From a virus (taxonomy: Duplodnaviria > Heunggongvirae > Uroviricota > Caudoviricetes): a stretch of DNA of 64,000 nt. Shown piece after piece: positions 19,044 through 64,000 of this stretch. Both the position numbers and the translations under genes were made by a program. Every line of letters starts with the position of its first letter. The first letter of the stretch is position 1. The stretch is taken from the IMG/VR virus record IMGVR_UViG_3300025413_000008. The stretch is one strand, 5' to 3'. The notes below the pieces were generated by a model, which searched no databases, was not told the DNA's origin, and was given only the letters and a program-made list of their open reading frames with translations.

Positions 19044-19118
19044 TTAAGACCATTTCATTGTAATGTAGGGCATCAGTGATTCGTGCACGTTGTATCGTGG
19101 AAAATAATATCTAATCAT
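19044..19118 (-). CDS. 24-aa mini-ORF MIRYYFPRYNVHESLMPYITMKWS (not in the ORF track)
   Basis: Manually translated; starts in the GAGGTGGTC-ATGA junction and ends with the family-like MKWS. Confidence 0.55.
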   Translation of the reverse strand: MIRYYFPRYNVHESLMPYITMKWS

Positions 19119-19336
19119 GACCACCTCAATATGAACATGGTTAAATTCTTTTCTTCTTCAAACTCGGCCCATACATCAAGTCCTTCAATAACACACTTTG
19201 CTCCGGAATTTTTTATTATATCATAGAGTGCATAATTGTATTTTAAGCTATCACGTGGTTCGGTTATGGAATCAATTAAATTTTTATATATGGGCTTAAT
19301 TGTATAGCCATCAATGAGATTGATACGAACTGTCAT
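19115..19336 (-). CDS. Small LRWS-family protein; start MTVR at 19336
   Basis: Ends EFEEEKNLTMFILRWS; ATGA coupling at both ends. Confidence 0.7.
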   Translation of the reverse strand: MTVRINLIDGYTIKPIYKNLIDSITEPRDSLKYNYALYDIIKNSGAKCVIEGLDVWAEFEEEKNLTMFILRWS

Positions 19337-19590
19337 GACCATCTCAGAAGGAACCAAGATTCCAACTCGGGGCTTAGGATATAACGTCGACGAAACCCAT
19401 TATCATCTGCATAACCATGTTTCTGGAAACATGGTGCACCATGTTTCCACATACGGAGTGGGTGAGACTCAATCCAATCAGTAGTATCACCTACTATCAT
19501 AGAATACATATTCCACCCAATTGGCTGATAAATACCAAGCCATACCCATGGCATCAATTTTCTTGAATACTCATGCAAATTTGAGTTCAT
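19333..19590 (-). CDS. Small LRWS-family protein; start uncertain (19590 or 19554)
   Basis: Ends ELESWFLLRWS. Confidence 0.55.
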   Translation of the reverse strand: MNSNLHEYSRKLMPWVWLGIYQPIGWNMYSMIVGDTTDWIESHPLRMWKHGAPCFQKHGYADDNGFRRRYILSPELESWFLLRWS

Positions 19591-19804
19591 AAAATACCGC
19601 TTCCTCTGGGTCTTCAAACGCCGGAAATGAGGCACCATGAGTGCCTCCTGATATCAGGGAAAACCTTCCTACCAGTTTTTCGGTGATCCATGCATATGAT
19701 TCAGCATTTATAGGCGTGTTGGAACGAACAAAATGATTGGGCATGAAGTTCAGTTCTCTTTCCAAAAACCACTGACTTAAGTTTAGATCATCTATCGTTT
19801 TCAT
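19571..19804 (-). CDS. Small LRWS-family-like protein
   Basis: Ends FEDPEEAVFYELKFA. Confidence 0.7.
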   Translation of the reverse strand: MKTIDDLNLSQWFLERELNFMPNHFVRSNTPINAESYAWITEKLVGRFSLISGGTHGASFPAFEDPEEAVFYELKFA

Positions 19805-35519: not shown

Positions 35520-35717
35520 TTAACTTTCTCTAATCACATCAAAAATATCACCCCATTCAAAGTCAACCTCATACTGTTGGTAAAGAAATTTCCCTACCAT
35601 ACGACAATATGCGACCTTAAAGGGATATATGAGCTTCCCACTGATTGAACTGCGAAACCACCTTGGCCTCATCGGCATCCAATCTTGAATTAATATAATG
35701 TCACCTCGCGAATTCAT
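35520..35717 (-). CDS. Hypothetical protein; start MNSRG at 35717
   Basis: ATGA overlap with the upstream LKYS* gene. Confidence 0.6.
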   Translation of the reverse strand: MNSRGDIILIQDWMPMRPRWFRSSISGKLIYPFKVAYCRMVGKFLYQQYEVDFEWGDIFDVIRES

Positions 35718-36121
35718 GAATATTTCAGCGTCAAACAAACCCAAGCCCGGTAAGCATCGCGTTCGTTATAAAATTTCCAAGTTGTGCGTCCACAAAAATT
35801 TTCGCGATAACAATCTGCATTTATCAGCATCGTTACTTCATTTTCCCACTCTATCGCCTCATTCGTATGACCAAGATTATAGTTGGTAGTAATTTTATAG
35901 CTGGTGATTTTATGGTTTTGAAAGCGAGCGCCTTTGCCATTATGATGGCGGTGAACACTTTTGATCATGGTGAAATATGTTGATGTCTGTAGTGTTTTAT
36001 CCGTGTTTGACATTTTTGTTTTCCGTAAGGTATGTTGAGGATTTCTTATGAGTCCGCGAGTAAATACAGCGGGCGCATGCCAAGGATATGAGCCGCTGCC
36101 AATATAGTATCTACCGCTCAT
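35714..36121 (-). CDS. LRWS-family-like protein
   Basis: Ends FYNERDAYRAWVCLTLKYS; ATGA coupling. Confidence 0.65.
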   Translation of the reverse strand: MSGRYYIGSGSYPWHAPAVFTRGLIRNPQHTLRKTKMSNTDKTLQTSTYFTMIKSVHRHHNGKGARFQNHKITSYKITTNYNLGHTNEAIEWENEVTMLINADCYRENFCGRTTWKFYNERDAYRAWVCLTLKYS

Positions 36122-36342
36122 AAATATTTCAAGTTAAACCACATTTCCTGTTGGTCGCTTTCAAACTCAAAATCAACGTTGAAACTATGTCTATCATAAT
36201 CAAGCGAAACCGTAACATCATGTATCTCATCAGCAAGATATGACAAGAGATATCTTCTCATTTCATGCTGTAGGTCCGGGTTCATCGCTCTACCTTTAAA
36301 CACTAACATTAGATCATCAGTAATACTGGCTGGAATATTCAT
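36118..36342 (-). CDS. LRWS-family-like protein
   Basis: Ends FESDQQEMWFNLKYL. Confidence 0.7.
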   Translation of the reverse strand: MNIPASITDDLMLVFKGRAMNPDLQHEMRRYLLSYLADEIHDVTVSLDYDRHSFNVDFEFESDQQEMWFNLKYL

Positions 36343-36557
36343 AACACCCTCAACAGAAATGCAGTAAACTCTTGTTCAGAGTCAAACGTAACAGTGATAC
36401 CTTTACCGGATAGACTTAGTTTGCACGTATAGTAATCATTCCACACCTGTCCCCAGGTGTTGATACTGGTGTTTTCTCGTTCTGTCCACCCTTTAAGGTA
36501 TGCTTTTTTATACCAGTCTGGTTCTTCACCTATTAGGAAAGTTACTTGGTATGTCAT
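36339..36557 (-). CDS. LRWS-family-like protein; start MTYQ at 36557
   Basis: Ends FDSEQEFTAFLLRVL. Confidence 0.7.
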   Translation of the reverse strand: MTYQVTFLIGEEPDWYKKAYLKGWTERENTSINTWGQVWNDYYTCKLSLSGKGITVTFDSEQEFTAFLLRVL

Positions 36558-36988
36558 GACCATCGCAACGTGAACCACGTATAGTCACTTTCTTCCTTAA
36601 AGGCAAAGAACATAATATCTGCCCCGGCAGCGATGTTTACAAAGTAATCTCCGTTATGGTCTTGTCTAACGCGATGCCATTCATTACGCCACTTACCTTG
36701 ACAGTGCTGCTCACACCATTCTACCATATCATCTATTTCATCAAATTGAAAGTTGTTAGATGCGCTGGGCCGCAATAAAGAGCGTCTTGGTGACGACTTA
36801 TAGTAACTGGATGGCACCGCCCAAACAGAAGAATACCCATGATAAACCTGACTCACCAGATAGTGCTGGGCATTGTAATCGGGATCATATTTAAGTTCGT
36901 ATTCGCGCCAAGTTTTGCAATCATAATTTTCAAGAAAGCGTTTTTCGCGCCATCCTTTCCACCGTGCCTTGAGTTCGCTAAGATTCAT
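36554..36988 (-). CDS. LRWS-family protein; start MNLSE at 36988
   Basis: Ends FKEESDYTWFTLRWS. Confidence 0.75.
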   Translation of the reverse strand: MNLSELKARWKGWREKRFLENYDCKTWREYELKYDPDYNAQHYLVSQVYHGYSSVWAVPSSYYKSSPRRSLLRPSASNNFQFDEIDDMVEWCEQHCQGKWRNEWHRVRQDHNGDYFVNIAAGADIMFFAFKEESDYTWFTLRWS

Positions 36989-37332
36989 GACCACCTCAAT
37001 AAAAACCAAGCGACATCGTTCTCATTCCTGATATAGATATAATAAATGCCGATATACCAAGAACCATGTTCAAAATTTTGTTCGCACCATTTCCATATTT
37101 CATGATAATCCTCAGGATCAAGTTCAGAATACCAACCGCCATCTCGTCCTTCTATCCACTGATTCTTGTCAGCTATAATACCAAGATCATCAGTCCATCC
37201 TTCTGGATGTCCCGGATCATAGCGAAATTCTGGTTTAACTTTTTTCACTGGAGGCATTGTCCATTTTGTTTTCAGTTTTACAACTTTAGAGTTTAATCTA
37301 ATCTTTGTAATTTCAAATTTAACACCAGTCAT
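36985..37332 (-). CDS. LRWS-family protein; start MTGV at 37332
   Basis: Ends IRNENDVAWFLLRWS. Confidence 0.75.
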   Translation of the reverse strand: MTGVKFEITKIRLNSKVVKLKTKWTMPPVKKVKPEFRYDPGHPEGWTDDLGIIADKNQWIEGRDGGWYSELDPEDYHEIWKWCEQNFEHGSWYIGIYYIYIRNENDVAWFLLRWS

Positions 37333-37652
37333 GACCACCTCAACAAGAAAAACGTTAAATCTGATTCACGTGAAAAATGGTATTCTCCATTCACATAAGA
37401 TGCGCCAGCTTCCTTTAGGCGATTGCGCAAGTCATCAATAATGTTAATGAGTTTTATATTCGGATGCATCTCGCGCGAACGCTGCCGATCTTCCAGTATG
37501 AATGTTTGAAAATTATAAAATGCTTGCTTATGATTATCATCATCAATTACATATAAATTATTAAGACACCACTTTTCAATGAATGGGATTGCCCACTTAT
37601 CAGCAGGATTAAGATCAATTTTGTGTTTAGCGGACATTATGACAGATTCCAT
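37329..37652 (-). CDS. LRWS-family protein, first gene of the array
   Basis: Ends FSRESDLTFFLLRWS; promoter TTGACT-17-TACGGT at 37677-37705. Confidence 0.75.
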   Translation of the reverse strand: MESVIMSAKHKIDLNPADKWAIPFIEKWCLNNLYVIDDDNHKQAFYNFQTFILEDRQRSREMHPNIKLINIIDDLRNRLKEAGASYVNGEYHFSRESDLTFFLLRWS

Positions 37653-37719
37653 ATAGGCTACAGTGATATTTTTCTCACCGTATACCTTTTATGCAACACA
37701 GTCAAGTGTTATTTTGAAA

Positions 37720-38784
37720 TTATACCTCTAGAGTGACGTATGTCAATGTTACCGTAACAGGATTTGTGCTGCCGCTGTTATTGTAAATTTTGAGATACAT
37801 ATTTGTAGTCACAGGGCTTTCTGCATTGAACCCGAATGCTGCGGGAGTAAAGAATGTAGTAACATTGGTTCCAGTCGTAATGGACTGACCAATTACACCA
37901 CTTCCCGCCGTTGGTGGAGTTCCGATTGCTCTGCTGCTATCAGCACTTTGTGCGGCTGCACTGGTGTATACTACGACCCATGCGCCAACCGATGCAGTGA
38001 TGCTGTATAACGCATATCCTTTGGCTGCTGTTACTGTTGCAGTGGCGCTTGCTTGATATGCAAGCGAAGCGGTAGTGGTTGCTACGGTTGTGCGGCTTGA
38101 TAATCCAGTCACTGTTCCAGCAAGAGGAATTGCCACACCATTTGCATACATATAGTTATCGCACTTGATACCATACGTGCCTCCAGAAGGTAATTGAATT
38201 CCTCCTGACACAAAATTTAATGCAGTTGCTCCTGCCCCACCGGCACCACCAGAAATGTTCCATACGCCAGTCAGTGTTCCCGATGTAGTTGCGCTTCCTG
38301 TAGTAATATTGGCTGAAGTCAGAGTCCCCGTAACATTTGCATTTGCTAATTTGACATTTGCTAAGTTTGCGCTAGTAGATACAGTGAGATATCCACTATT
38401 TAAAGTTCCAGTTGTGGCAGTTCCGGATGTTGATAAATTTGAAGTATTAACATTTCCGGTTACGGTAATGTTTCCAAAAGTCGTGCTACCAGAAGACGTT
38501 GATGTTAGTGATAGCCAACTGGATGCACTAGTTACTCCCGTAACTGGACAAACATACATTGTGTTATTGTTGGTATTAAACCAAAGCTGTCCTTGGATGG
38601 GATTTGGCGGTGGAGTGTTTGCGGCAAAATTTTCCAACATTTGAACAAAGTTAGTATCAATTGCTTGACCATAACCTGAATAATTTCTTCCCGGTAAACC
38701 GAGAGAGGTGCTGGTAGTATTAATTGTTCCATCTTGGATGGTGGTAAGGACAGTTCCGTTACTGTTTAAAATTGTATATGCCAT
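37720..38784 (-). CDS. Short tail fibre / structural protein
   Basis: N-terminal domain paralogous to the 1104-aa fibre; GATAAATA at 38806-38813; SD GGAG. Confidence 0.8.
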   Translation of the reverse strand: MAYTILNSNGTVLTTIQDGTINTTSTSLGLPGRNYSGYGQAIDTNFVQMLENFAANTPPPNPIQGQLWFNTNNNTMYVCPVTGVTSASSWLSLTSTSSGSTTFGNITVTGNVNTSNLSTSGTATTGTLNSGYLTVSTSANLANVKLANANVTGTLTSANITTGSATTSGTLTGVWNISGGAGGAGATALNFVSGGIQLPSGGTYGIKCDNYMYANGVAIPLAGTVTGLSSRTTVATTTASLAYQASATATVTAAKGYALYSITASVGAWVVVYTSAAAQSADSSRAIGTPPTAGSGVIGQSITTGTNVTTFFTPAAFGFNAESPVTTNMYLKIYNNSGSTNPVTVTLTYVTLEV

Positions 38785-43315: not shown

Positions 43316-46300
43316 TTAAGTTATATCCACTTCTAAGAATGTTGCAGGAATAGTTTGACTAATCTGCAATGGATCACCAAGTGTTGGGTTGTATACATAT
43401 GAATTCCATGTCTGGTTATAGTAAGTATCTGGCAATTTGTTTGCTGACAATATGCTGAATACATCAGCATATTCCGGAATATATACCTGTGCGCCTGTGC
43501 CATTTGCCCCACGCTGCAATCCACCAAGTGTATTAGTTACAGTATTGACAATACTGAATTTAATTTGTTCACCATTAATATATATAGTGTTGCCTATCAA
43601 TGTAGTTATTGTCAGTGAGTTGCCCGCGTTAATATAACTGCCAGTATTAATTACTAGTTCTGGTGCCAAACCAATGATCGTGATTTGATAGTTAGAACTA
43701 CTTATATACTTTCTAGTAGTATTGTTATATACAGAAATACCGGTAATGAGTGTTTTATCTACACCAGTCAATCCTATAGTATAAACGCCGCCACTTGCTG
43801 CCGGAACTATTGATGTCTGAGTAACACTATTAGTTACTGCACGGTAATCTTGTATATAAACCAAATCACTTTCTTGATATAATGGCTGAGTCAACCAAGT
43901 TCTTGATAGGTTATTTGCTCTATATACTGATGCCTGACCTAACTCATTAATGAAGTTCATATAGATTTCACCATTCGGCGTTGCAGTCGGAATCATATTA
44001 GTCATAATTACGGCTGATCCTGATGTAATGCTCGTCAGAATTCCAACTTCATTTGATGGATACAATCTGAGGCTTGATGAGGGGACTCTATACCCATTAA
44101 TGGTAATCCATAGACGATCAGGATTATTCTGTTCCCACTGAGTTACGTTAACCACACCAGTTGCATCAGACAGGGTTACGTTTGTGCCATACTGTGAATA
44201 TGCTACACTGAATTGAGTTGGACTATAAATTGTGCTTACGTAATATACTGTTCCCTGAATCAATCCACCAAGAATATTTGTGCCATCTGCTGAACCTGTT
44301 GCAGTAAACACTACAGGAGTTCCATAATCAAGAGTAGCAGTGCTCGCCACGGTGATTACATTACTGTTTCCACCACTTGAAACCGAAGTTGATGACGTTG
44401 TAGTATCAACTAGATAATAAGAACCTGCTACCCAAGTGTATCCCCCGCTTATGTAGGATGATATTTGTGTTACTGGGTTATTGACTGCATTTAATGCAGC
44501 ACTGAATGGAGTAGTATACAAGTCAAATACATTGGTATTAATTATTCTTGCATAATATTCGTTTCCATTAAGTTGATTTGATCCTACTGTCCCATCAATT
44601 CTGATTAATTGATTTTCTGTAAAGTAGTTGGTACCGTTTGTGGTTACACGAACGGCTGGTGTTCCTCCAACAGTTACTAGCATTTCACCAGTGGCAGTAG
44701 TCACAGCAAACACGCTTCCCGGTACACCATTAACGGCAGTTGCAGAAATTCTGAATGCGGTAGAACTCACTATACTTTGAACAAAATACACAGTTCCATC
44801 TGTAGCTATTCCCCCAAAACTAGTTCCTTGGAAAGTAACTGGTTGACCAACCACGAATCCGGAAGTACTAACAACTGTGATATTATTGGTACCAGAAGTT
44901 GTTGCGTTAGATGCCGTCACCGCATATGGAGAAGTAATATTATTTGAAATACTTACGATCTGACTAACAATATTTGAATTTGTCGCAGTAATTGTTTGAG
45001 TATTTAAATATTGTCTTCTAGTATCATTAAATGTAGTGACTCCTATTTCTGACCCGTTTGATGGCGCAGAATTAAATGTAATTGTGTCGGCACTTGGATC
45101 AATTGTATAAGTGGACGGCGATGCTCGTAGTCCATTAACTTCTACAATTGCGTTAGATGGATTGCCTGCGCCAACATAGTTAGACAAAGCAAATTGCGTC
45201 TGAGAACCAGTTCCAGTAAACAATTGAGTTTCAGGTACTGTATATCCATACTGGATTGGTAACGTCTGACCAAATAATGAATATACCAGATAATCAGAAT
45301 TATTTGTATAATTTCCTGTTGAGAAAATTATCATTGCAGAAGTTCCATTTGGTTGGATACCAAAGGCATAATCATATGTTACGAACGTTGCGCCGCCTTG
45401 TTGAGTAGTCAGCGATAATACTGGACCCGATGGAGTTGCGGATATAGTAAAGGTTGTGCTACTTAATATCTGTGCCACATAATATCTTTGTAGAGGAACA
45501 ATGTCAGGTCCAAACATATTTGCACTGAAGGTGATAGGCGTATTGACTACCATTCTAGAAGTTGAATTTGTTGTTATGGCGTTAGTTCCAGTAGTAGTGT
45601 TAGTAACGATATCTGTGCCACCAGCAATTAATTTCGTACCATTATGATAAATTATTGGCGATGTCCATGTCAATCCCGTTCCTGCCTGAACAATTACATA
45701 CATGGTTCCTGTTGCATCAGTGACATCTAAAATGGGACCAGGCTGTCCAGTAGCCGAATTGAACGATGCGGATATGGTTATTGTATTGGTTGCTTTACTA
45801 ATACTCTTTACATAATATACAGTGTCTGGATTAATTCCACCAAAAGTTATCCCTTCAAATGTTATTGGTGAATTAAGAGACAGATTTGATAAATTATTGC
45901 ATAGAATTCCATTACCATTACTGATAGTCTGAGTTGCAATGGTATCAATATCATATGTACCCGGCTGTATTACACCACTTCCTTGATAGATTGGCGCACT
46001 GTAATTACAGTCTACATAGATTTCATTAAATCCGGATACCGGATCAACCCGAATAGGATCAACATTGCTATTTGATTTAATCAATTGGTTACCATTTCCT
46101 ACTTCATATACATCTAAGCGAATCGTTTCAGTAATAGGATATGGAAGCGGGTTAGTAAGAGTAAAGGTCTTATTAATCCAATTAACCGTATAATCAATGC
46201 CATTATTTAATGTTGTTCCTAGTCCGGATGCTACACCCACTGTCTGTACAAAGATTTGTGCAGGGAAATGAGCGATTCCAGCAAAACTATATGTCGCCTG

Positions 46301-49300
46301 TGTTCCGGAGGTTGGGACAAGATTCTTGGACACCACATTATACCCAGAGTGACCGTATTGTTCAATGTTCCAATCGGTTCCCGGACGAGTTGCGACCGTC
46401 ATCGCAACGTTATCTGTTACTACTCCCGGAACCAATTCTTCGGGACCGTATCCATACTGGAATGGTGCACCCTGAACATCATATGTTGGTACAGGCAGTC
46501 CAGTATTATTAAATGGCTGATCCTGTAATACCGTATCCAATGGATACTGTAGTGATGGCTGGAATTCATTACCATAGTAAATTGAGTTAGGATACGTGAC
46601 TCCATCAAATAACTGAGTTAAGTCAACACCCGGCATATTTGTTGTAGGGGCATAATAACCAATTACTCTATCCATTGCATTCAATCGTGGATCATCAGAG
46701 TCAAGAATTTGCCATTTACCTATTACAAAGTTTTTGTCATTATTTGAAACAACGCAGATGTATACTCTGCCGTTAAATTTAACAATTGATTGATTAAAGA
46801 AGAATGGTTCAGGCAAGAATGCAAAACTTCCAGCTTTGGCAATAGTGAAGTTTGTGTTTGCAGTTGATGTAACCGTAATGGCGCTTCCACCCGGAATTGT
46901 TGTTACCTGAATTTGAGTGCTGTTAAGAATTGCAGAAATATAATATGTCAAGTATGGAGAGATATTAGAAACTGCAGTACTAGTATTACCAGTAAACACA
47001 ACTGCATCATTAACACTAAATTTAGAAGTATCAGAAATTGTCAATGAATTATTTGATACAGTGACCGAATTTACAGTATCAATCGTAAATCCACCAAAAC
47101 CAAGATTTATTCCACTTACCGGCACAGTCATTGATGGGTTAGCATATACTTCAACTTGATTTGGGGATATCACTTTTAAGTAGCATGTCAGTGATGGATA
47201 TGGCACGATTCCAGAACAGATTACGCTCGTGATTCCTCCAGAAGAGTTAATATTATTAACCTGCAATACTGCATCATTTAATGGCGTTGTTCCACCAAGG
47301 ACCGTTCCACTGATTGTAATAGTATTGTTTAGCGCAAACCCTGATCCAGCACTAGTGATTATCGCCCTGTATCCACCTAAAATATACGACATATCAAATG
47401 TAGGAGTTGAAGTTATGTATTGATTCAACACCGAACCCGTTGTGGAGTTGCTTAAAGTTACTGGTGGGCCACCCGCAGTTGCAGAAACAGTAATATATGG
47501 ATCACCAACCCCTGTCATAGTACCATTGTCTGTAGTTAGTGTGAGAGTTGCACCACCTTTAGTCAAAGACACAGTAAAGTGAGTTGAATCGGCAATGCTA
47601 GATACAAAATACTGCTTGCCAGTTAAGATGCCACCAAGTCCCTGTCCAGAAAATACGATTGACATGCCAACATACATATATGATGTGTCGTCGCCCGTTA
47701 GTAGATTTCCGTCAGATGATGTTCCGGTAACATTTACTTGAATATTATTCACCCCGGTTTGACCAGAATATGTCAATACATAATATGTAGTATTAGATGA
47801 AAGACCACCAATGGCAGTTGCAAACTGAATTGGCATATTAACATAGAACAAATCAGTCCCACCAGAAACAGAATCAATAGCAACAATATTATTACCGTTA
47901 GCAACGGTTGCATTTACGTTTCTCTGAATCAGATTTCCAACAATACCGCTAGTAATATTCGGATATTGACCAGATGTTCCGTACAGTGTAAATTTTTGAC
48001 CATTTATTTGTCCGGGACTTACTGGCAGCGACACGTTCATGGTCATTGCACCAGTATCCGTAGTTAATTGAACACTATCAATTTGGTCGGTAATCAATGC
48101 TGTTCCAGTTGCATTTGACAACGTAAGGATAGAACCATTAATATACTGGGAAATCTGCATCGTTGTACCACTGAGAATATTACTTACATAGTAAGTAGTA
48201 CCTGCCACAATTCCACCAAATGCGGTTACAGGGCTTCCCGAAATAGTCATTTGCGTAAAGATAATCGGATCGTTTACATTAAATTGGAATGTGCTTCCCA
48301 CAGTGATGACATTAGTACTAGATGCTGTTGATGTCATTGTAGTAGTCAGCGGGTTTTCATTTGCAGAAATTGTAAATGTCTGTTGATCAATTACTGTGCT
48401 AATATAATAAACTTGATTTTCTACGACTCCTCCAATCACACCGTCACTGAAAAATACTGGAAGATTTTGATAGAAACTGCTTGTTCCACCAGTTCCAATA
48501 ACACTAGTTGGGACAGTCAGATAATTGGTTCCTGAGGTAGTATTAGTAACAGTCAATATTCCGGGATAATTTATATCAAGAACCGCAGTATCAACAATCT
48601 GAGCAGTCAGACATGTCATTGGTATTGAGCCTATGGTTGCCGTAGTTAAAGAAACTACGGAACCATTTTGTGTTGCGGAGACTGTAAATGCAGTTTCACT
48701 TATTACTTGCGCAACATAATATTCTTGATTGGCCACTAATCCACCAATCACTGCACCATTAAACTGGACCGGCATACCGACATAAAATCCAATTGTCGTT
48801 CCCGAGGCATTTGGTTCAGGATTAGATGGGTTGTTATTATTGTCTTGTGGAATTAAGGTGATAGCATTATTGCTACTGCTTGTGCCACTAACATATCTAA
48901 TGGTTGATGACCAATCAGTTTGTCTATTATTAGCCACGCTAACAATTTCAAATACTGCGCCTTGTGCCGATGCCAAGATTCCAGAAATAGATGGATTGAC
49001 GCTTTCTAATTGAATGGAAGAACTTGATACTTGGTTAATATTCAAGTAGTTTCCAGCAAAGAATGATCCATAATACTCACCGGCTTTCCAATCAATTACT
49101 TGAGATTTGTAAGTTGTTCTGTCAAACTTAACGGTAATATTATTTTCTCTTATAGGATAAGATGTTGAAATGGCATATGCCCGTGCACCTAAGTTAAAAC
49201 TTAAAGTGTTGGTTGTTCCCTTATCATATATCTGAATTCTATTTTTATCATTTATAGCATCGCGATATGAAGAATACAATGCAATAACAGAGGTTGGGTT

Positions 49301-52300
49301 CGTCTGTAACACATTTACATAATACCATTCGTTATCTGATAGCAGTCCGATACCAACCTTATCAGCGCCAGCCTTATATTGGATTACGTTACCTGTCTGT
49401 AAGTTAGGTGCATAAACAACCACAGTATGTAATAAAGAGTTGATTGCAGTATTGGTAAATGAAATTGTTGTTGACGGATCAATTACAATTTCTGGTGTGA
49501 TGGCATAGCCCTCACCCGGATTAATTACATCAATATTTAATACGGAATCAATGCCCATAACCGCTTGTAGTTGTGCGGGAACTGTTGGAGGCGGATAAAG
49601 GGTTGTATCAATATATGCCGTTACCTTTGGAGTATTTACATATCCTGCGCCACCGTTCAATAGAACTACCGGAGGAAGATTTATTGTGATTTTTGCGCCC
49701 GGAAAATGATTGGACACTGTAGTTCCATTATATCCTCTTGTTAGACCAGCAATAAGATTCAGTGACGTATCAACCGCACTATATTGAATCTGTTCATTGT
49801 CAATAGTTAGAATACCATTAATAGGAAAACCATTGGCATTTTCAACTATCATGCTATTTGACTTTAAATCCATATATGAAGTTAATGTAGTCATCAAGTA
49901 GTCTGGCTGACCGGTCAATGATACTCCATAGTTCTGTTTCCATTGAGTATATGGTGCAGTTGACCAAATGCTGTCAGTATTAGCATATTCATATTCATTA
50001 CTTGGTAAACCATACACAATCTGGGGAGATATAAATTTTTGATAAGTGCTATTATATTGTGCAGGAAGGTCAAAATCTGTCAGATTTCCTACATAATCTT
50101 CATTTCCTTTATAATCATATAAGAAATCTTTGATCAATACATGATATGGTTTAGTTTCATTAATATAGCCACTCAAGAAATCAAAATTATCTGTTACATA
50201 ATTTTCATATGGCAGAAGTTCACGAAGAGTGTGCTGTACATCAAGTAATGATGTTTTATTTAACCATGGCAAGAAATTTTGGGATTCTACAGTTTCACTC
50301 TGAATGTATTCAAACATCAGAATTAGGCTTGAATTTCTATACTGAAGTAAGTCTTCAGTAAAGATTTGTTCATTTAGTGCGCGGATAATATAATATGTCT
50401 CTTGACTTGGATAGTCGTCATATACGCCAGTATCAAAGAAGTTTCCATCCCATCCAAACTGACCGCTTGCATAATCCCACAATGTAGAATTAAACTGAAT
50501 GGTACCATTCTGAAGTCCGACACGAGTCCATACACCATTACCATCATAGCGATAAGTTTCAGTATTACCATTTTTACTTTGTAATACAGTAACAATAGTT
50601 CCTGAAGATACATTTAATGTTTTTAGATCAGCATAATATGGAACCTGATAAAGCGATTTGGTATTATTGTCGTATCCAGCAGCCCACCAATTTGTATATG
50701 ACCAATAATCTGACGTAGTGTAATATTCACCTGAGGCAAACAAAAACGTAGAGTCCGGTCTTAGTTCAGCGATGGGATATTGAATTAAAATACTATTAGC
50801 ATATGTTAAATAGTTGTTAAGTGCTAAAAATCTGTCATAAAAGAAACTTTGTCTTGGATGGGACATTACGCCAGACTGCACCGCAAGTGGCAAGAATGGG
50901 TCAGGAACAACTGCTCCGGATTTATCACATCCGGAAAATGAATACAATAACCTTTCATACAATGCAGTAGGAATTCCTGTATAATTAAAATTATTTCCAA
51001 ATGTCGCGACTGTTGTCTGTCTTTTCACTATAGGAGGAAAACCGGTCAGGAAACTTTTAGGATCGCCCTGATTAATAAGTGCAAATTCTTCATGTGAGAC
51101 GTCTTGTGCCTTTGCAGTTGAATATCCGATATGAAATATTGAATCTTTTCCGTTAAAAAATGTAGATGCATTATAAAGCCCAATCGTGTTTGGAGACAAT
51201 GGGGCAACAAATGGAATACCGGACGCAGACGGATTTGCAATATATGTGGATACAATTGAATCTGATAATGATTTATTTCTCTGATCAAATATAATATTAG
51301 TGTTGCGTACCCAGAAATAATAAACTGGAGAAACAACGTTTGAAGAATTCAATACGCTTGCAACGCAATATTTATTGATATCATATACGCTGCCTGAACC
51401 ACTATATTTATTTGGCGGAGAGAAACTTGCTACCCAAGTATATACTGCGACATCTGAACCCGGAAATACCGATCCCCAATATTTACTATTGTATGTTACA
51501 TCATTTTGGTGATAGTTTACCCATCGGATATTAGTTACATCCAACCAAAGCTGACCGACTTGTGCAGTGCCCCACATGTTACCATTGTTATTAGCAAGAT
51601 TGCTATTGTATGATGCAGGGTCAACGCTTGTAACGTAATCCAGATTTTCGCGGGCTGCACCAAGCAACTTGCCCTGTAATGGGTCCATGTAATCAAAGTT
51701 TACAAGGGTCTGGTTGCTTGTTGCACTGTAAAGTTGTGAGTTCTGAATGGAGTTGATATCAACCACTGGTGCAGAATTTCTATATACGGACCAGACTGGA
51801 ACACCTGTTGGGTTTGTATATACCAGAACTTGACCATTATTTACACCAGTCAAGAAGTTTGGAGTTCCAATAACAATTGTGTTATCGTTAATATCAAGAG
51901 CAGTACCATACATAGGCGAGTTACCATATGATGTTGAATTGTCATTGACACTCTGAGCGTACACATATTGTCCCGGTGTTGTCAAGCTTTCATTATAATC
52001 AGCAAGATACTGGAAGAGATAGACTGCGCCTGCATTTGGATATGAATCAACAAATTGAGTTGCATTATTATCAAATACGGTATCGTTGCTTAAATTAAAA
52101 GCATCTACAAAATCAAATAACGTGCCTTCGTAACGAGTGTCAGTTGGTGCTGAAACCACCATATTATTGAACGCGTCAATTTTAATACTAGTACCAAATT
52201 GTGTTGGACCAGAAGCATATGGACACTGTAGTACTTGTGTTTCTGTGTATGGCTGGAAGCCCAATTCAGAAAATGCAGTAGTATTAAATGCAGTGATTAC

Positions 52301-55300
52301 TAACTTTTTATTAACTGGCGCAATTGCACTATCAATGCACTGAATAATAATATTATTATTACTAGTGGCAGCAGCCTGAATATTAATCAAACCTGAGGTA
52401 TTAATTGCATTAGCAACCTGAATTGCCGTCCATCCAGAAGAAAGATTTACCGCATATCCGTTGATCAGAACTGTTGTTGAAGAAACAATATTACATCCAG
52501 TAGTCCCAACGACAACACCATACTTGGCACCACCATTTGAAAACTTATAAACTGCTCCTTCTTGACCATTAATGTCACTTATTTCAAATGGCGATCCAAC
52601 AAGAATATCAGAACCGCTATTAGCATTTGCGACAGCATAACCAAAGTGAATTCCTGTTCGGTCATGATAATTGGAATTAAATGTCTGAGCTAAGAAAAAC
52701 TTACTGTCATTGACATTTAAAATATCACCAGCATTTAAATTACTATAATAATATAAGTTGGTGCCAATTATTGCATAGTTACTATCATCAACAATCGTGC
52801 CGTTAACAGATACATACAGTGGTGTCACTTGAACATAAACATTTACGCCAGTTAATGACACACTATTTAAATCTACTACAGTTGTGGTAATACGGCTTGT
52901 TTTTATCGTAATATTGTTACCTGATATAGAAGCGATGTAGTATACTCGCGCGGCATTGATACCAGTTCCAGCCAATGACGCACCAGTGAAGGCTATTGGG
53001 GTATTTACGGCATATGCACTCATGCTCGTGCTGCATGTGATTGTATCATTGGATGAGTTTGTAGCACTAGCAGTAATAGTAGCGGTCGCGACAGGAGTCC
53101 AAGCCAACGGGAACACTGATGTCTGGTTAGGAACTTGACCTGATTGCACTTGGAAATTCTGTTCAGTGCGATTCAATACAGACACTTGTCCCCAATCTTC
53201 AATAGTCATGCTATAATTTTTGAGTGGCGCTCCAGCAATCAATATGCTACCGTCTTGATTGGTTGAAAGAGAGGCGCTGAAATTATCCCCCGAAGTATAC
53301 CCATAGGTTGATCCAGTGATTTCACTTGCATAGCGATATGTTACTTGAGTTGCGGTACCTGATCCAGTGCCCGCTCCAGTGGCAATAAAGGTGATTCCGA
53401 CCGCATTATATGAAGCGCCAATTGCCGTGAAATCTGTTGAACCAAGTTCGGTAATTACATAAGTCTGGCCTGTATTAAAATATCCAGCCTGCAAAGGAAT
53501 ATTGTCTCTACGATAAACGTAGATGTTGTTGTTTGTAATATCGGAAATGTAAATCCAGTTTGCATCACCAGAAATTGCTACTGCACTGCCCCAGTTGGTT
53601 ACCCCACCCGGCGCTGTGATGGCACTCTGATATTGAATCAGGTTGTCACCTAATGGACTATTATTAAGTGTATAAATGAATACCTCAGGCGTTCCTGTGG
53701 GCTGAGATACGACATAGATATCGTTTGATGCGGAATACGAAATTTCAGAACCAAATGATGTTCCGTTAGTAATTGTCTGGTAAATTTCATATTCTTGAGT
53801 TAATGAATTGAGTACATATCTATAGACATTTCCTGCGGCAGCATCGCCAACAAGATATCCGATATCAGGAGTGTAGGCAACTGCTGAACCAAATGTGGAG
53901 GTTGATACCGGTTGATTAAGAAGTGTGTTCTGCATAACATAGTTGTTAGCTTTAAGCAATACCGCCCAATTACCATCAACATTGTTATCTACCCATACCA
54001 AATTATCAATGAAGTCTGCCTGAGTGAGATTTAGATTTCCAATATCGGATGGATTAGTTACACGATGTGACTTAAATGTCAACCCGATACCTAATCCCTG
54101 AATTGAATTTTGTGTAGTATTATTAAGGTTTAAATTAATTACCGCTTCATATATACTTGGAACATCAATGACAATATAATAACCATTTACGTTAGATGCA
54201 AAATTCACAATAGACAAAGACTGCAATCTAGCCAAATTGTGAGGAGCACTAAAAGTTAATGTTACGGTAGAATTGTTATTATTACGAACCTGTAATATCT
54301 GTCCGACAACCTCCCAAGAATAAACTCCCCAATCCTGCATAAAGTTTGCCAACCATGCATATTGTCCGACATAAAAATTCTGAATTGGCACTATAGCGCC
54401 ACTGGAATTGGTTGCACGGGGAAGACCTGCATAATAGTAAGATGCTAGTGTTATATCGTTGAAGTTTACAAACCCAGCATTTGGGTATGTGTTATTCACT
54501 GAAGGATTAGAGGTTACAGGCAAAAAATTAGGAGAGGAAATAGGAGTACCATAGTTGTACAGCGTATTCAATGGAATCTCTTGCATTGCGCCGTTAGTAT
54601 TAATGGTTCCGTCTGTTAAACTTACAATTGATGGGTCTCCCGTCATGTCACGAGCATTGATGGAAAAATCAATAAAATTATTATTTAGAGTTCCGCCAAA
54701 TTTTCCGGACAGTATTGACCATATTTCATTGACTGAATAGTTGATGCCACCAGTTGGTAAATTTGCACCTTCAAATGCACTTACTGAATTTAAAGTTCCT
54801 TTATTAATAATCAGATTCTGATAAACCTGAACTTGAGCAACATTAGTTAAATCAAGCAATGCCAAATAATCTCTTGGTCGGTAGCCAATCAGTGAATACC
54901 CAAGTGTGTCGGCATCATCATGAAGGTTTGCTTGATTGATATCATAAAATAATGTGCTTTCATATGCCCTCGTTGATGGATTTGAAAGCATGCCAATTTG
55001 GATTGCTTCGTAATTGGTCAATTTCCACTGAGATGGATTAAATTGAGTTGCAGGATTTACCACAACTTGTGCCTGATAATAATTGTTCTTATAAAGCACT
55101 ACCGAACCCCGCGTATATTTCACTGCTGGGTCCCATTCTTGCACATTATCCTGATTGAGAATAAATCCACCAGCATACATTGTCCCGTTCCATTCAGCCG
55201 ATTTTTCTCCACGAAGGAAAATGCGGTCTTGTCTTAGTCCGGTCACTAAGTTATAGATTACGTCATTGAATAATGTAAAATTATTAAACACAATACCGTG

Positions 55301-58300
55301 CTCAAAGTTACTGATATCAAATTGTCCGTATGCCATAGCATCGCCAACATTTTGTGTTTTAACACTAAACAAATTGTTATTACGAAATATTGCTAAATCT
55401 TTATTTTCAATAGGATAAAGATTTTGATTCAGGATGAAATTTTGGTCCTGAATGGTCAACGGTTGAACCAGTAGATTCTGTGGACTAATTTCCAATAAGC
55501 CTGCTGCAGGATTCAATGTAATAATGCTGCCAATATTCCATCCAGTCTGTGCCCAATAAAGAAACTCTTGGATCATTTGCGTCCAAGTTACTTGTATGCC
55601 ATTCTGAATGTCATTAAATAACATTCCTTGTGTTTCAAGATATTTACCATAACACATTAAAAATTGCGCAAGGTCTTGTGCATTGTAGAATTTTGTCCCA
55701 TATGGGACGATATCTGTTTGAGTGGCAGAATAATTTCTATATAAATTTACGGAAATATTTTGAACTGTAAGATTAGTTGTTCCTTTTCCTATCAATGGAT
55801 TCGCAATGGTAAAATAAGCATAAAGTTGTGAATTCCCATATACTGTCCAGTACCCATCATTCTGCTGCACTATGACGCCACTATACATTATTCTGTCTGA
55901 CGGTTGATTATTGTACAGTAGAATTTTGTAACTTTCGTCTGGAATTAATAATGACGAATTGTTACTGTTAGGTGATCCTTTTTCTACATAAAACTGTAGT
56001 AAATTTTTATCACTAAATCCGGCTAAACGATAAACCAGTCTTACATCCAAATTATTCAGCAACGTAGTAGTGTCAGCAGTAGCATCAATTCCCTGCTGCT
56101 TCTGATAATCTACAATCCAGTTAATATAACTTGTTTTAGCAGTACCATTACCATATATTTCAATATTGGATAGTACTAAGTGACTTCTGTTATTAACGAG
56201 ATATTGGTTAAAATCAGAATTATATTGGTAGTTGTCCAAGTCGACTCCCAAGTTGAAAAATTCAGCAGGACGAGTCAGAGCGTAAATTTTCATAAGGTCA
56301 AATGGATAAGTTGAACTGCGACGATATGAAAATTCTGTTGGAGCATCATCTCCTACAGCCCAGTCTTTTTGGAAAGTGCTTGGGTTGTAGTTTCCAATAA
56401 TTGATTGAAATGGTGAAAGCAATGTGCCATTCGTGTCAACTGGAATTATTTTTGACAGTCCGGGGCGGGCAAATTCCGTATTGATATACGGATTGCCATT
56501 GTTCCATATATAACCTGCTTCAAGATCACCCCAAAGAATACCATTATCGCTTGTATATGGTAGTGGACCATAGCGCGTTGTCCACCATGTTGGTTCATTG
56601 GCAAATCCGAGCATTTCCCAAGGAGTTTGATCAGGAGTTGTTGTATCGTAAAAGTATTCATACACTCCTCTCCAATATCCTTGTTGAATAGGAGCATTAT
56701 TCAGTCTATTTGCTGAATTAGTATAATTATATGTTAGAGTATTACTGCTATTATAATATTGCGTCTTGTAATCTAAACGATTCTGTCCAACCCAATTTAG
56801 GAACAATGGACTATAGATAGACATGAAGTCTTTATAGCTATATGTTGGATTTCTAAAGAAACCGGGTACGATTTCAAATTTTGAAATTGGAATCTTGGTG
56901 CTTAATTTCAAATTATTAAACACTCTGTTTTCAAATTCAAATAATGCCTGATCTCTGAAATCGGTGAGTACACCCAGAATCTGATCATAAGTTCCATAAA
57001 GTTTAGTATATGATCCATCGTGTCCCTTTATGAACCATGTCGGATTTGTGTAATTAGAGTCCAATACAATGGCAGGCTGAAATGCAGGGTATAGTCCCAG
57101 TTTTGTAGGAGTATTTGGCGCATATGATCCATATGTTTGATTATACTCTTTAATAATAATTTGATCCCCTGCCTGTAGGTTAATCAACACTTCTAATGAT
57201 GGTGAATCCGTATTAATTACGTAATCGACGCCAGACAACAATTGCTTTTCAACGGTAACGCCAGTAATATTGGTAATATGATAAACCAATACTCCATTAT
57301 AGTTCGCAGTTGCAAAATTATATATTTGACTTAGTGGATAAAATGTACTACTTGACAAATTATTAAATGTGTATGTATTTGACACGTATGGCGTCTGAGA
57401 CGGCAGCATGTCTGACCAAAAGAATGACTGGTCGCGGGTTTTTGCAGCAGTGATTTTTTGCAATGCCACATCTAAAATTTGTGAAGGCGTATAACGCTGT
57501 ACATAGTCAGTGTTCTGAACGGTATTAACAATCAACTGTTTATATGTAATGTATTCACGGCTGTTATACAGAAGAGCATCAAATATATTATATCTAGGTG
57601 AGCGAAGGAATGCTCCCGGCAAGACAAGAGAGGCAGAATTCTGAATAATCTTCGTTCCATATGGCAAAAGATTACCTAAATCTCTGTAATTGTTGGCTCC
57701 AAAAATTGGACCCGTTGTGTTTGGGGCATTAATGTATATGTCTTGATATTGGTCGCGAATATCACCCATATTAACGATGGCTAAATCTTCGTTAAATGGA
57801 TTATTATTTAAGTTGATTGGTATATCATAATAAGCCAAGTTACTTACTTGGTCACTAAGTACCAGAATTTGTATTACAGTTTTTGCAGTCGGAACATTTG
57901 CAAGTGTTATAGTAGTTGTAGTAGGACCAACACTAACAGTATAGTTGTTTGGGTTTACATATGTGTTATTTATGTATACTTTGATCGTTGGCCAACCGGG
58001 ATTATCTGATGTTGGTTCACTGAGAGCAGCAACATCACATACAAATGATGTAGTTGTGTTAACCAATGGATCAAAATTGTAATTAAATACTTGATACTGC
58101 ACACTGTCAGCGATTGCAGTTTGCCAACCTAGCTGTTTTACTTCCATGGCAATATCAGTATAATTATATACGTAACCAATATTTACCTTTTCTGTAATTG
58201 GGGTAGTGCCATTAATATACGAAAATGTGTCATTGTTCAATGACACATCAAAGCTGATGTCACCAATATTATTAATGTTACTGTATCTTACTGGGAATCC

Positions 58301-61102: not shown

Positions 61103-64000
61103 TTATAGGTATCCTATTTGTAATAATGATGGGCTTAATGCGGGCACAACTTGTATTGAATTAGCAATTGCAGCATTTGTGAAAATTTCATATGGTAAAC
61201 AAGTTATTTCATATAGATATCCGAATGGCTTAGATGGATCATTTGAGACTAACACCGCAGAACTGATTAAATCACCACACTGTGCATGCAGATATGCGCT
61301 CAATTCTGAAAAATAGAAAGTAGCTCCAAAATTCCAATTATTAATATCAAAATAATTATTTATTGCCGTTAATACAGCACTTCTTATTTCACTGTTGCTT
61401 GCACTGGTGTTTGACGCCGGTACTACATTAATAGTTCCCTGCAGGGCTGGTTCGGCTTTTGGTCCAAACAGTGGCTTAAAAACAACACTATTGAGTATTA
61501 CAGAATCAGATAGCATTTTATAATCTTGCAATTTTGGATAATTTTGTGACAATTCGTTTATAGTAGGCAATGGTGGTTTTGGAATAGTGTTTGTTGTATC
61601 CTGAATCCAATTGGTATACGAAGTATAATAATCCTGCGTAACTACGTATAGATCAATGATATTAGTAGTTACAGGATCAATTCTAGTAGTATTATTTGAA
61701 TTGTGTCTATATTGAAACGCCAAACCTTGACGACCCGGTAGCATTGAATATTGAACCTGAGGAACCATTGTATAAAATTGTGTCAGAACTGTTGGGTCTT
61801 GGTATGATTTATAAAAATTATTCTCAGAATATGCGTAGAACAACTGTCCCTGAGGGTATTGATATTTAACAACTTCAATTTGAGAAAGAGTTGGGTATTG
61901 ATATACCACAGACGACGATGGAATAATATACTTAACCGTTAAGTTGAGTGGGTCAATGACTGTTTCAAAAAAAGTATATACTCCGATGTTAGAACTGCCA
62001 TTTGAATATCCAGTTATTTTATTGAAAAAATCTGGATTAAGTATGAGATTGCCATTATTAATATCTGTAGCAGAGACCCTTACTTGAAAATCATTGATAT
62101 ATCCATCACTTTGAACTGGCTGTCCAGTGACATTGATTGGCGTATTCTGCCCTAAGGGCTGGCTAGAATTAAAGCCAGCATTAATCCCTAAAACATTAAT
62201 AAAATCTTGAAGAATCTTGCCGGAATATGGGTCATATATTACAGAATTAGTATCAAATGTAAATCTGGTATCTGATACTGATCCAAAATAATATGCTAAT
62301 GATTTATATGTAATACTATATGTGTTAGTGTTAGCATCAGCAGTAAACTGCACGAATGCATTTGGATCATTGTAAGTTGAAATTGACCATCTTTCTTGGT
62401 TAATCAGAAGCGAATTATTAAACACTAAAGTAAAATTCTGTTTTAATTCCATTCTGATGATACATTCTTGAATGATTGTAGTTGGTATGATATTACCAAA
62501 CACTGGTATTACTGATGTTAGGATAGCACCATTTGGAACATATCCACTTAGTGTTACCGGTCCTGCTCCGTTAGCAAAATTACCAATACCATTATTGCTG
62601 CCATCACCGATTACATTAAGAATAGTTGCCCAGATATACGTGCTATCCCCAGAACCAGGTATCCCCGCGACCAAACGAGCATTATGATCAAAATAGTAAC
62701 CCGGTGGTGAATCAAATCGACAGATAGCACCGGTAGTGACATACTTTACGTTTGTTGAAGAATATACACCAATTGACAATGGATTTACTGCGCTTACTCC
62801 ATTGATGTAATTATATAAATATCCAGTTTCTGATCCGGCGTTAACTGTACTTGCATTCCAATAAACAGTTCCATCATTTGTGGAAGAATTGATTGCATAT
62901 CTAGTACAATTCTGAATATAATATTGGTTTGCTTCATTTAGCCTTAAAACATTTGCTAAGCTATTTGTGAAGAAGGTAATAATGTCACTGGTGTTACTCA
63001 CAACAAGGGATAAGAAACCATTACTATCATCTTGATACAATGCGCCATCCGACCCGTAAGAATTTATACTAGAGTATTTTCCAGTTGGATCAAGTAAATC
63101 TAAATTCTTTGATACACCAACTGATGATCTGTTGATTGCGGTTGATTTAATAATCGAACTATACAGTGTATATGGGAAATTGCTATAGTCTTCACCATTA
63201 ACCATACGATTTTGACTATAGTAACGAAGTGGGGCGCGCTGTTTAATATCATTTAATGTTTCGCGCGCTTGTGCATTGGTAACCGTTGTGGTAAGTGCTA
63301 ACCCTACGGTAAGAGTTTGTGGCGTACCTGTATTGTCAATATAAGTGAAGGCTACCGATATGCCTGACATTTCACTTGGATCAATTGTATATGTTAGCGC
63401 ATTCCCATAACGTACATATGCTCGGAAGTTGCCGACCGGAATATTAGAAAATACACCGTCACCAAATACATAACTAACAGCATCATTTGTTCCAGACTGA
63501 ACCGAAAAAATAAGACGTTTAGATGATTCTGTTTGTAAATGTGCATTAGCATATACGTTTTCTACTTGAATCCATGGAGTTCTTGTGCCATTATTGTTAA
63601 ACTGATACAACCAAGTGTCTGTATTATTGATATTTTCAATTGATCCTATTGGGACAATTTGGTTTGAAATTGCTTGAGATAAATTAAAATCAAAATTTTG
63701 TATAGTTCCCTGTTTAAAATAGAAGAAAAAACCAGTATTTGGACTGCCATATCCTCGCATGTCATTTCGATATAACATATTGAACTGTCCAGATGGTGCT
63801 GGTGGAATTTCATAAATATAATCTTCGTTTAATGAAGTGACACTCACTAATTCAAAATTTGTGTTTTGTCCATTTACGGATGACGTAAAGGGAATTATTG
63901 GAAGAGATGTTGGTGTTATCTGTATTGCATATTCGCTAGTAGTGACACCGAGAATATTTTTTACATTTCCCGGTTTGCCGATACTTTGTACTGGAATCAA
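61103..64000 (-). CDS. 6: Baseplate wedge subunit, T4 gp6-like; 5'-truncated by the window edge
   Basis: ETLNDIKQRAPLRYYSQNRMVNGEDY matches the gp6/baseplate-J ESxxxIKxxAPxxYxxQNRxVxxxDY motif. Confidence 0.8.
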   Translation of the reverse strand: MIPVQSIGKPGNVKNILGVTTSEYAIQITPTSLPIIPFTSSVNGQNTNFELVSVTSLNEDYIYEIPPAPSGQFNMLYRNDMRGYGSPNTGFFFYFKQGTIQNFDFNLSQAISNQIVPIGSIENINNTDTWLYQFNNNGTRTPWIQVENVYANAHLQTESSKRLIFSVQSGTNDAVSYVFGDGVFSNIPVGNFRAYVRYGNALTYTIDPSEMSGISVAFTYIDNTGTPQTLTVGLALTTTVTNAQARETLNDIKQRAPLRYYSQNRMVNGEDYSNFPYTLYSSIIKSTAINRSSVGVSKNLDLLDPTGKYSSINSYGSDGALYQDDSNGFLSLVVSNTSDIITFFTNSLANVLRLNEANQYYIQNCTRYAINSSTNDGTVYWNASTVNAGSETGYLYNYINGVSAVNPLSIGVYSSTNVKYVTTGAICRFDSPPGYYFDHNARLVAGIPGSGDSTYIWATILNVIGDGSNNGIGNFANGAGPVTLSGYVPNGAILTSVIPVFGNIIPTTIIQECIIRMELKQNFTLVFNNSLLINQERWSISTYNDPNAFVQFTADANTNTYSITYKSLAYYFGSVSDTRFTFDTNSVIYDPYSGKILQDFINVLGINAGFNSSQPLGQNTPINVTGQPVQSDGYINDFQVRVSATDINNGNLILNPDFFNKITGYSNGSSNIGVYTFFETVIDPLNLTVKYIIPSSSVVYQYPTLSQIEVVKYQYPQGQLFYAYSENNFYKSYQDPTVLTQFYTMVPQVQYSMLPGRQGLAFQYRHNSNNTTRIDPVTTNIIDLYVVTQDYYTSYTNWIQDTTNTIPKPPLPTINELSQNYPKLQDYKMLSDSVILNSVVFKPLFGPKAEPALQGTINVVPASNTSASNSEIRSAVLTAINNYFDINNWNFGATFYFSELSAYLHAQCGDLISSAVLVSNDPSKPFGYLYEITCLPYEIFTNAAIANSIQVVPALSPSLLQIGYL

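Follow-up and report, generated by a model that had tools for sequence, protein, structure and literature searches.

The question raised by the DNA analyzed here, a stretch of 64,000 nucleotides (nt; hereafter the window) from the tailed virus record IMGVR_UViG_3300025413_000008 of IMG/VR, is why consecutive small genes should be joined by the same short sequence, and whether this sequence is kept by the protein that it ends, by the ribosome that starts the next protein, or by recombination between its copies. On the minus strand, which carries all the genes relevant here, seven open reading frames (ORFs), g1 to g7 (37652-35520), are chained through six ATGA stop/start overlaps, as an earlier note on this DNA had described; a second cluster is located at 19804-19044. 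The answer that we favor, with a probability of roughly three in four, is that the array is an early operon of diverged paralogs with a common Leu-Arg-Trp (LRW) tail, that this tail is dual-coded as the Shine-Dalgarno (SD) sequence and start codon of the next gene, and that the junction repeats serve as recombination seams for whole genes, here called cassettes.

The repeat itself is readily delineated. The 15-mer TTGAGGTGGTCATGA occurs exactly at 37329, 36985 and 19115, and the variants that the earlier note had listed at 36554, 36339, 36118, 35714 and 19333 are all present as well. When up to three mismatches are allowed, the window contains nine matches against 2.2 +/- 1.4 expected, a number that was reached in none of 100 shuffled sequences. 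At the boundary of g1 and g2, TTGAGGTGGTCATGA spans the Leu-Arg-Trp-Ser codons, the TGA stop, the SD sequence GAGGUGGUC and the ATG of g2, so that the end of one protein and the start signals of the next are written in the same few nucleotides. Neither local inverted repeats nor another repeat family were found at the junctions.

The proteins encoded by these genes are related over much more than their last residues. Six of the seven array genes (g1 to g6) and at least three genes in the second cluster belong to one family, and its members, proteins of 45-150 amino acids (aa), have in common a C-terminal module of about 45 residues that extends to the very end of the chain, not only the short terminal motif to which the earlier note had limited the similarity; conservation extends approximately 25-45 residues back from the C-terminus. 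The motif, which that note had attributed to all the proteins, is indeed present in g1 to g6 and in gA and gB of the second cluster, all of which also fit the module, but not in g7, which ends in VIRES, does not fit the module, and is either a degenerate family member or no recognizable member at all. In the window, 9-10 ORFs carry the motif, which is found also in the gene at 19804-19571 (with an ELKFA end) and in a remnant at 19118-19044 (with an MKWS end), and there are dozens of such ORFs per relative. The module pattern comprises a helix with W..E, a loop with G.W, a hairpin ending in h.F and a helix with ..E.D...F.L[RK][WY]x. AlphaFold2 applied to 145 diverse tails yields a confident model (predicted local distance difference test, pLDDT, 91.2) with helices at positions 4-17 and 35-45 and strands at 23-25 and 30-32, and the model of full-length g2 shows the same helix/hairpin/helix elements. 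The 17 metagenomic homologs of g2 have in common the N-terminal block GWTDDLGIIAD and a C-terminal block of the form W-C-E-Q-N...G-W...Y-Y-I-F...E-E-D-V-A-W-F-x-L-R-W-S. A profile built from the 145 tails, along the lines that the earlier note had proposed, retrieves 2,714 representative clusters at E <= 1e-3 from a library of 1.84 billion proteins clustered at 50% identity; nearly all of the matches are 43-141 aa long with the module at the very C-terminus, and a few are two-module fusions. The ratio of nonsynonymous to synonymous substitution rates (dN/dS) between strains is about 0.37, which indicates that the family genes are real and under selection.

The two layers of information in the tail can be separated by comparing coupled ends, which overlap a downstream start (n = 55), with uncoupled ends (n = 28). 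For the codon tests, only loci found through protein similarity were employed, and loci recovered by a DNA pattern were left out of the coupled-end tests, which kept the sample free of bias from that pattern; the uncoupled ends were taken from all loci. The Arg codon at position -3 is AGG in 49 of the 55 coupled ends, that is, in 49 of 51 Arg codons, against a background of 4-6% in long ORFs of the same phages (p ~1e-57), and in only 4 of the 28 uncoupled ends (Fisher p = 1.7e-11). Conversely, Lys takes this position in 4 of the 55 coupled but in 17 of the 28 uncoupled ends (p = 3e-7). The Leu codon at position -4 is TTG in 41 of 53 coupled ends compared to 19% in the background, whereas the ratio of TTT to TTC at Phe(-6) is the background one. 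Thus, the synonymous sites at the junction, the behavior of which the earlier note had set beforehand as a test of its interpretation, are not free, with the bias stopping at Phe(-6).

These observations bear on the possibility that the C-terminal peptide is a mere by-product of an RNA or DNA element (a site of ribosome binding or of recombination) and contributes nothing to the protein. In this frame, no SD sequence is better than AGG-TGG, and both the Arg codon and the choice between Arg and Lys track the downstream start, as such an account would have it. However, the uncoupled ends still retain Leu-(Lys/Arg)-Trp, with Trp in 27 of the 28, the basic residue being encoded by AAA, CGA or AGA and the Ser codons being free (AGT, AGC, TCT); the tail closes a helix that is predicted with confidence and belongs to a 45-residue module whose conservation extends 25-45 residues upstream; and at Phe(-6) it is the amino acid that is conserved while the codon is free. 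We therefore regard this alternative as highly improbable. The contrast between coupled and uncoupled ends implies, rather, that the protein needs Leu, a basic residue and an aromatic residue, and that the ribosome-binding function picks Arg-AGG, Trp-TGG and Ser-TCA among the options. The suggestion of the earlier note that the conserved peptide partly reflects the RNA element is borne out in this specific form: Leu-(Arg/Lys)-Trp is kept regardless of what follows, and the preference for Arg-AGG over Lys and for Ser-TCA depends on the overlapping start.

The signal that results from this choice of codons is a strong one. Against the canonical 16S tail GAUCACCUC, which may not be the tail of the host, GAGGUGGUC forms nine paired positions, one of them G-U, with a predicted energy of -14.1 kcal/mol; this is the strongest SD pairing among the 42 gene starts of the window, for which the mean is -4.4 kcal/mol. 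The GAGG core of GAGGUGGUC sits 5 nt upstream of the AUG. A perfect SD complement would read TGA, a stop, in frame, which makes TGG the best SD that can be encoded at this place. Read from the overlapped ATG or GTG, 249 of 256 downstream frames run for at least 40 codons without a stop. The SD is probably used by ribosomes, and the junction may serve reinitiation, de novo initiation or both.

The relatives, numbered here with an L, are metagenomic contigs, and orthologs and cassettes were assigned by direct BLAST. Contigs that encode homologs of g2 derive from large T4-like phages, reach 352 kb and contain small genes with this tail in long series; their other genes in the neighborhood include rIIB, dCMP deaminase, RtcB, a metallophosphatase and tail genes. 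The source is a giant, uncultured T4-like freshwater phage, and the array lies in a variable region of its genome. The genome-wide count proposed in the earlier note was made for two near-complete IMG/VR genomes of 333 kb and 338 kb, which contain 8 and 7 copies of the 15-mer, respectively, with at most one mismatch; the copies share a single strand and form one or two clusters, and no match to the reversed control was found. The 21-mer TTTATATTGAGGTGGTCATGA is present in 67 IMG/VR stretches.

The cassette content of the array is not invariant. Neither this test, for which the earlier note had named an invariant cassette order among relatives as the refuting outcome, nor the one on synonymous sites refuted the interpretation. 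In the nearest diverged relative, L129/L130, where the tail-fiber-like gene is 78% and the downstream 166-aa gene 76% identical to their counterparts, g2 (64%), g3 (52%) and g4 (61%) are kept in the same order, each being separated from the next by five or six other cassettes, and g5 to g7 are missing. Cassettes similar to gA and gB, which are 17 kb away in the window, adjoin the g2 ortholog inside the array of more distant relatives.

Further evidence comes from near-identical contigs of independent samples, between which at least six clean insertions or deletions (indels) of cassette blocks, 219-1734 nt long, are seen, with flanks that are 90-99.9% identical. In all six clean array events, the join falls within the junction repeat, with 11-35 nt in common, and a hybrid junction remains. 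The blocks are one cassette of 219 nt missing from L130 (join in 14 nt); one of 223 nt missing from L131 and L132 (about 34 nt); two cassettes in 443 nt missing from L109 and L160 (an exact repeat of 25 nt in L104, with the high-scoring segment pairs overlapping by 35 nt); three in 563 nt missing from L109 (about 22 nt in common); several in 1734 nt missing from L158 (a 21-mer); and 504 nt at the array end missing from L088, where the join comprises about 11 nt and the crossover lies in the Arg codon, which has become AGA. Furthermore, between L130 and L132 the divergence jumps from 0% to about 20% precisely at a cassette boundary, which points to cassette-wise replacement.

All the compared sequences are short-read assemblies in which repeats of 14-25 nt occur many times per array, and mis-assembly across these repeats might, in principle, produce the presence and absence of cassettes. 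Yet, L109 and L160 come from independent samples and have the same short form, as do L131 and L132; the long forms are seen in three to five further samples; and the final k-mers used by assemblers are normally long enough to cover repeats of 14-25 nt. We give this explanation next to no credence. Taken with the gA-like and gB-like relocation and the additional cassettes in L129/L130, the junction-to-junction indels support the interpretation of the array as a set of interchangeable cassettes.

Two further observations come from pairs of relatives. Within an otherwise identical g3 ortholog, a patch of about 60 nt (L130:2190-2250) is highly divergent between L130 and L132, the products being 149 and 141 aa long, and might be a small internal replacement. 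In addition, L007:8556-8819 and L056:1273-1534 share one cassette that is 91% identical, whereas the neighboring cassettes are unmatched at >=88%, a further sign of mosaicism at the level of cassettes.

Several observations weigh against the view that the junctions are both translational signals and recombination seams. The full SD is present at three of the eight window junctions, with weaker forms at two and none at g5/g6 and g6/g7, which means that a junction can do without a strong SD. An RNA structure occluding the SD is not predicted (unpaired probability of 0.38 versus 0.34 with shuffled flanks); strict coupling is thus not implied, and independent initiation at each junction is possible. 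Homogenization of the junction flanks within a genome is weak and inseparable from lineage codon usage: codon -5 agrees in 9.6% of pairs within a locus compared to 6.8% in shuffles, with an excess of about the same small size at the neighboring codons. Some events are not clean: the remnant gC of the second cluster is cut inside the cassette body, and an indel between L143 and L186 has one end about 25 nt past the junction. As a counter-example, the same phages have indels outside the arrays as well; all the relatives, moreover, are metagenome assemblies. Finally, selection alone would favor survivors in register, so that placement of the breakpoints by homology is not proven.

Some of these points could be accommodated by ordinary biology, with the repeats being a by-product of a conserved tail and routine coupling at -4 overlaps, and the indels being random illegitimate events of which the in-register survivors are seen. 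In prokaryotes, ATGA overlaps with an SD in the upstream gene are common (PMC6728339), and the indels outside the arrays, the breakpoint of gC away from a junction and the weak homogenization of the junction flanks are all compatible with such a scenario. Nevertheless, random breaks filtered for frame or gene integrity alone need not land in the repeat itself, whereas all six clean array events have their join within the shared 11-35 nt and leave a hybrid junction, in one case inside an Arg codon, and the codon bias, with AGG at 89% versus 6%, far exceeds routine SD needs. We consider this account unlikely and the dual-coded operon with recombining junctions the better explanation.

Under the dual-coding interpretation, the array would be an operon of diverged members of a single large family of small proteins, transcribed early from a sigma-70-type promoter. 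The sole strong promoter of the array is the one ahead of g1, which overlaps the 3' end of the upstream tail-fiber-like gene (37746-37719); with this perfect promoter in front, the chain looks like an early operon. The tail would fix Leu, a basic residue and an aromatic residue, and the codons would then be selected toward TTG AGG TGG TCA TGA, so that the final 12 nt and the stop form the extended SD GAGGUGGUC, with its GAGG core 5 nt from the stop-overlapping AUG. Since the tail reads as an SD and a start, each member would give a near-optimal ribosome-binding site and start codon to the next gene, and since the same 14-25 nt are found at every boundary in the same orientation, the junctions would be, in effect, short direct repeats, between which recombination or replication slippage might delete, and presumably insert or duplicate, whole cassettes in register, with both neighbors of a lost cassette remaining intact and translatable. 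We infer that junction homology, beyond selection on survivors, sets the breakpoints through short-homology recombination or slippage. With regard to the enzymology, UvsX-mediated shuffling, which the earlier note had suggested, is no more than a candidate route; deletions between short direct repeats in T4 are not known to need long homology, which makes slippage or annealing at least as likely as strand invasion. Excised cassettes may re-insert elsewhere. A stronger version, which we find rather doubtful, is that the junction is an evolved, integrase-free seam, such that an excised member, for instance a circle bearing one hybrid junction, could re-enter any other junction of the same or a co-infecting phage and be translated at once off the tail of its neighbor. 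If true, this would explain the presence of gA-like and gB-like cassettes at differing loci between phages, and the arrays would represent an exchangeable library of early host-interaction or anti-defense proteins across a large clade of uncultured giant phages.

Among the known systems, the closest parallel is provided by the promoter-early stem-loop (PeSL) cassettes of the hyperplastic regions of T4-type phages (Arbiol et al., 2010, PMC2839356; Comeau et al., 2014, PMC4122927). The PeSL repeats of approximately 100 bp contain a promoter and a terminator, flank ORFans and recombine with a chimeric repeat left behind (PMC2839356). Excised circles with a single hybrid repeat have been demonstrated for PeSL cassettes. 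The likenesses are that short, repeated regulatory motifs flank small ORFan genes in T4-like variable regions, that repeat-bounded indels between close relatives leave one chimeric repeat (at least six clean events here), and that the repeat carries the expression signals of the shuffled gene. However, the PeSL repeats are conserved intergenic sequences, whereas the repeat described here covers 12-25 nt, with codon -6 already at background usage, and consists of a coding tail, a ribosome-binding site and a stop/start overlap without any intergenic space. The signal in a PeSL is transcriptional, with a sigma-70 promoter and a terminator hairpin, and in the junctions, which have neither, it is translational. 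The array, with its coding tail of 14-25 nt, is accordingly not a PeSL.

Translational coupling at -4 (ATGA) and -1 (TAATG) overlaps, with the SD in the upstream gene, is a known phenomenon (Huber et al., 2019, PMC6728339). The junctions resemble such pairs in their co-directional ATGA, GTGA or TAATG overlaps and in the placement of the SD, at a working distance, in the last codons of the upstream gene. Unlike in ordinary -4 coupling, the upstream genes are paralogs and therefore repeat one SD-bearing tail across dozens of boundaries, and -14.1 kcal/mol is extreme for this phage. Thus, the unusual part of the -4 overlap architecture is its strength and its repetition.

Short conserved sites at gene boundaries, known as linker or boundary sequences, have been proposed to allow homologous exchange between otherwise unrelated modules; the examples are sporadic, and their status is debated. 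The modular theory of phage evolution, with its linker sequences, reportedly goes back to Susskind and Botstein in 1978, and boundary sequences in lambdoid phages are said to have been described by Juhala et al. in 2000 and by Clark et al. in 2001. The junction is likewise a short conserved boundary sequence, with the differences that it is systematic, lies in a coding tail, is tied to one family and leaves hybrid junctions that are directly visible between near-identical genomes. As in integrons, the units are small, mostly promoterless, arranged in promoter-proximal arrays of a single orientation and gained or lost whole. In contrast to integrons, no attC-like inverted repeat was found at the junctions (no search for a tyrosine recombinase was made), and the cassettes are translationally linked paralogs instead of unrelated genes; with the attC-like repeat missing, the array is not an integron. 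A separate observation is that the junction 15-mer (e.g., at 36985-36999, minus strand) includes GGTGG, the 3' core of the Escherichia coli Chi site GCTGGTGG; every copy has the same orientation.

The functions of the family are not readable from the predicted fold. Searches of Pfam and PHROGs with 20 members gave only sub-threshold noise and no model for the family; megablast of the array against GenBank phages gave no match, tblastn of g2 and of a typical member against the same set gave none at E <= 0.01, and the best E value in a profile search of PDB was 0.3. Fold searches with the models of g2 and of the module recovered only generic two-layer alpha/beta structures (DCoH, ACT, SUI1, ring-building motifs and designed beta-sheet dimers), with Foldseek E values above 1 against PDB and best VIA-align Z scores of 4.8 and 4.7; the matches in Atlas and BFVD are exclusively uncharacterized phage proteins. 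A literature search found no paper describing the LRW-tail family or its junction. From their position and promoter, these proteins are likely to be the products of early accessory genes, and they could be early host-interaction or anti-defense factors. In the family census, P0018 (578 aa) was rejected as a false positive, a repeat protein. Two other proteins, P0095 (122 aa) and P0142 (141 aa), contain two complete tails in tandem, the expected outcome of a stop codon lost at a junction.

The features of the window are collected in Table 1. In the second cluster, there are two or three ATGA overlaps. The start of gA, an ATG at 19638 behind a strong AGGAGG (-10.3 kcal/mol), lies within the preceding gene, with an out-of-frame overlap of 68 nt, and the ATGA that closes this preceding gene opens an ORF of only six codons. 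In the short gC, 10 of 18 residues are identical to residues 82-99 of a 100-aa cassette in L008 (pairwise E = 1e-7), and gC is a putative 5'-truncated remnant of a cassette like that one; it looks as if a deletion had removed the DNA between the junction and a point within a gene body. The start of g1 (37652-37672, minus strand) has a near-nil SD of -1.1 kcal/mol, in contrast to the very strong ones within the chain, and the gene call in a near-identical contig places this start at the second ATG (37637). Elsewhere in the window, a single ORF of 5,928 codons covers 43316-61102 on the minus strand, and upstream of it a second open frame (61103-64000) leaves the window end.

Table 1. Promoter, genes and junctions of the array and of the second cluster in the window (aa, amino acids; SD, Shine-Dalgarno pairing energy).
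Feature	Position	Strand	Sequence or product	Remarks
Promoter	37719-37746	-	TTGACA, 16 nt, TATAAT	sigma-70 type; 12/12 consensus matches; upstream of g1
g1	37329-37652	-	107 aa	family member; C-terminus FFLLRWS
Junction g1/g2	37329-37343	-	exact TTGAGGTGGTCATGA	SD -14.1 kcal/mol
g2	36985-37332	-	115 aa	family member; conserved N-terminal part and C-terminal module
Junction g2/g3	36985-36999	-	exact 15-mer	SD -14.1 kcal/mol
g3	36554-36988	-	144 aa	family member; C-terminus FTLRWS; ortholog in L130
Junction g3/g4	36554-36568	-	TTGCGATGGTCATGA	Arg encoded by CGA; weak SD, -3.5 kcal/mol
g4	36339-36557	-	72 aa	family member; C-terminus FLLRVL; ortholog in L130
Junction g4/g5	36339-36353	-	TTGAGGGTGTTATGA	SD -6.5 kcal/mol
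g5	36118-36342	-	74 aa	family member; C-terminus FNLKYL
Junction g5/g6	36118-36132	-	TTGAAATATTTATGA	Lys variant; no SD, ATGA overlap alone
g6	35714-36121	-	135 aa	family member; C-terminus LTLKYS
Junction g6/g7	35714-35728	-	CTGAAATATTCATGA	Lys variant; SD absent
g7	35520-35717	-	65 aa	final gene of the chain; C-terminus VIRES
First gene of second cluster	19571-19804	-	77 aa	divergent member; C-terminus AVFYELKFA
gA	19333-19638	-	101 aa from ATG behind AGGAGG	family member; C-terminus WFLLRWS
Junction gA/gB	at 19333	-	CTGAGATGGTCATGA	
gB	19115-19336	-	73 aa	family member; C-terminus MFILRWS; flanking junctions at 19333 and 19115
Junction gB/gC	at 19115	-	exact 15-mer	SD -14.1 kcal/mol
gC	19044-19118	-	24-codon ORF	begins in the gB junction; ends MKWS-TAA

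Altogether, the junctions of this array are a clear natural case of dual coding: the protein tail and the ribosome-binding site restrict one another, and the two layers are statistically separable, Leu, the basic residue and Trp coming from the protein, and AGG and TCA from the RNA. The repeat-mediated shuffling known in T4-type phages is extended by this system from the transcriptional cassettes of the PeSL type to a translational seam of about 15-25 nt within coding sequence. For annotation, the junction pins the exact start codons of dozens of tiny genes that are often missed or mis-started by gene callers. The family itself is very large and has a confidently predicted small fold, yet neither Pfam nor PHROGs contains a model for it and GenBank phages gave no match, so that it deserves attention in work on protein function in giant phages.

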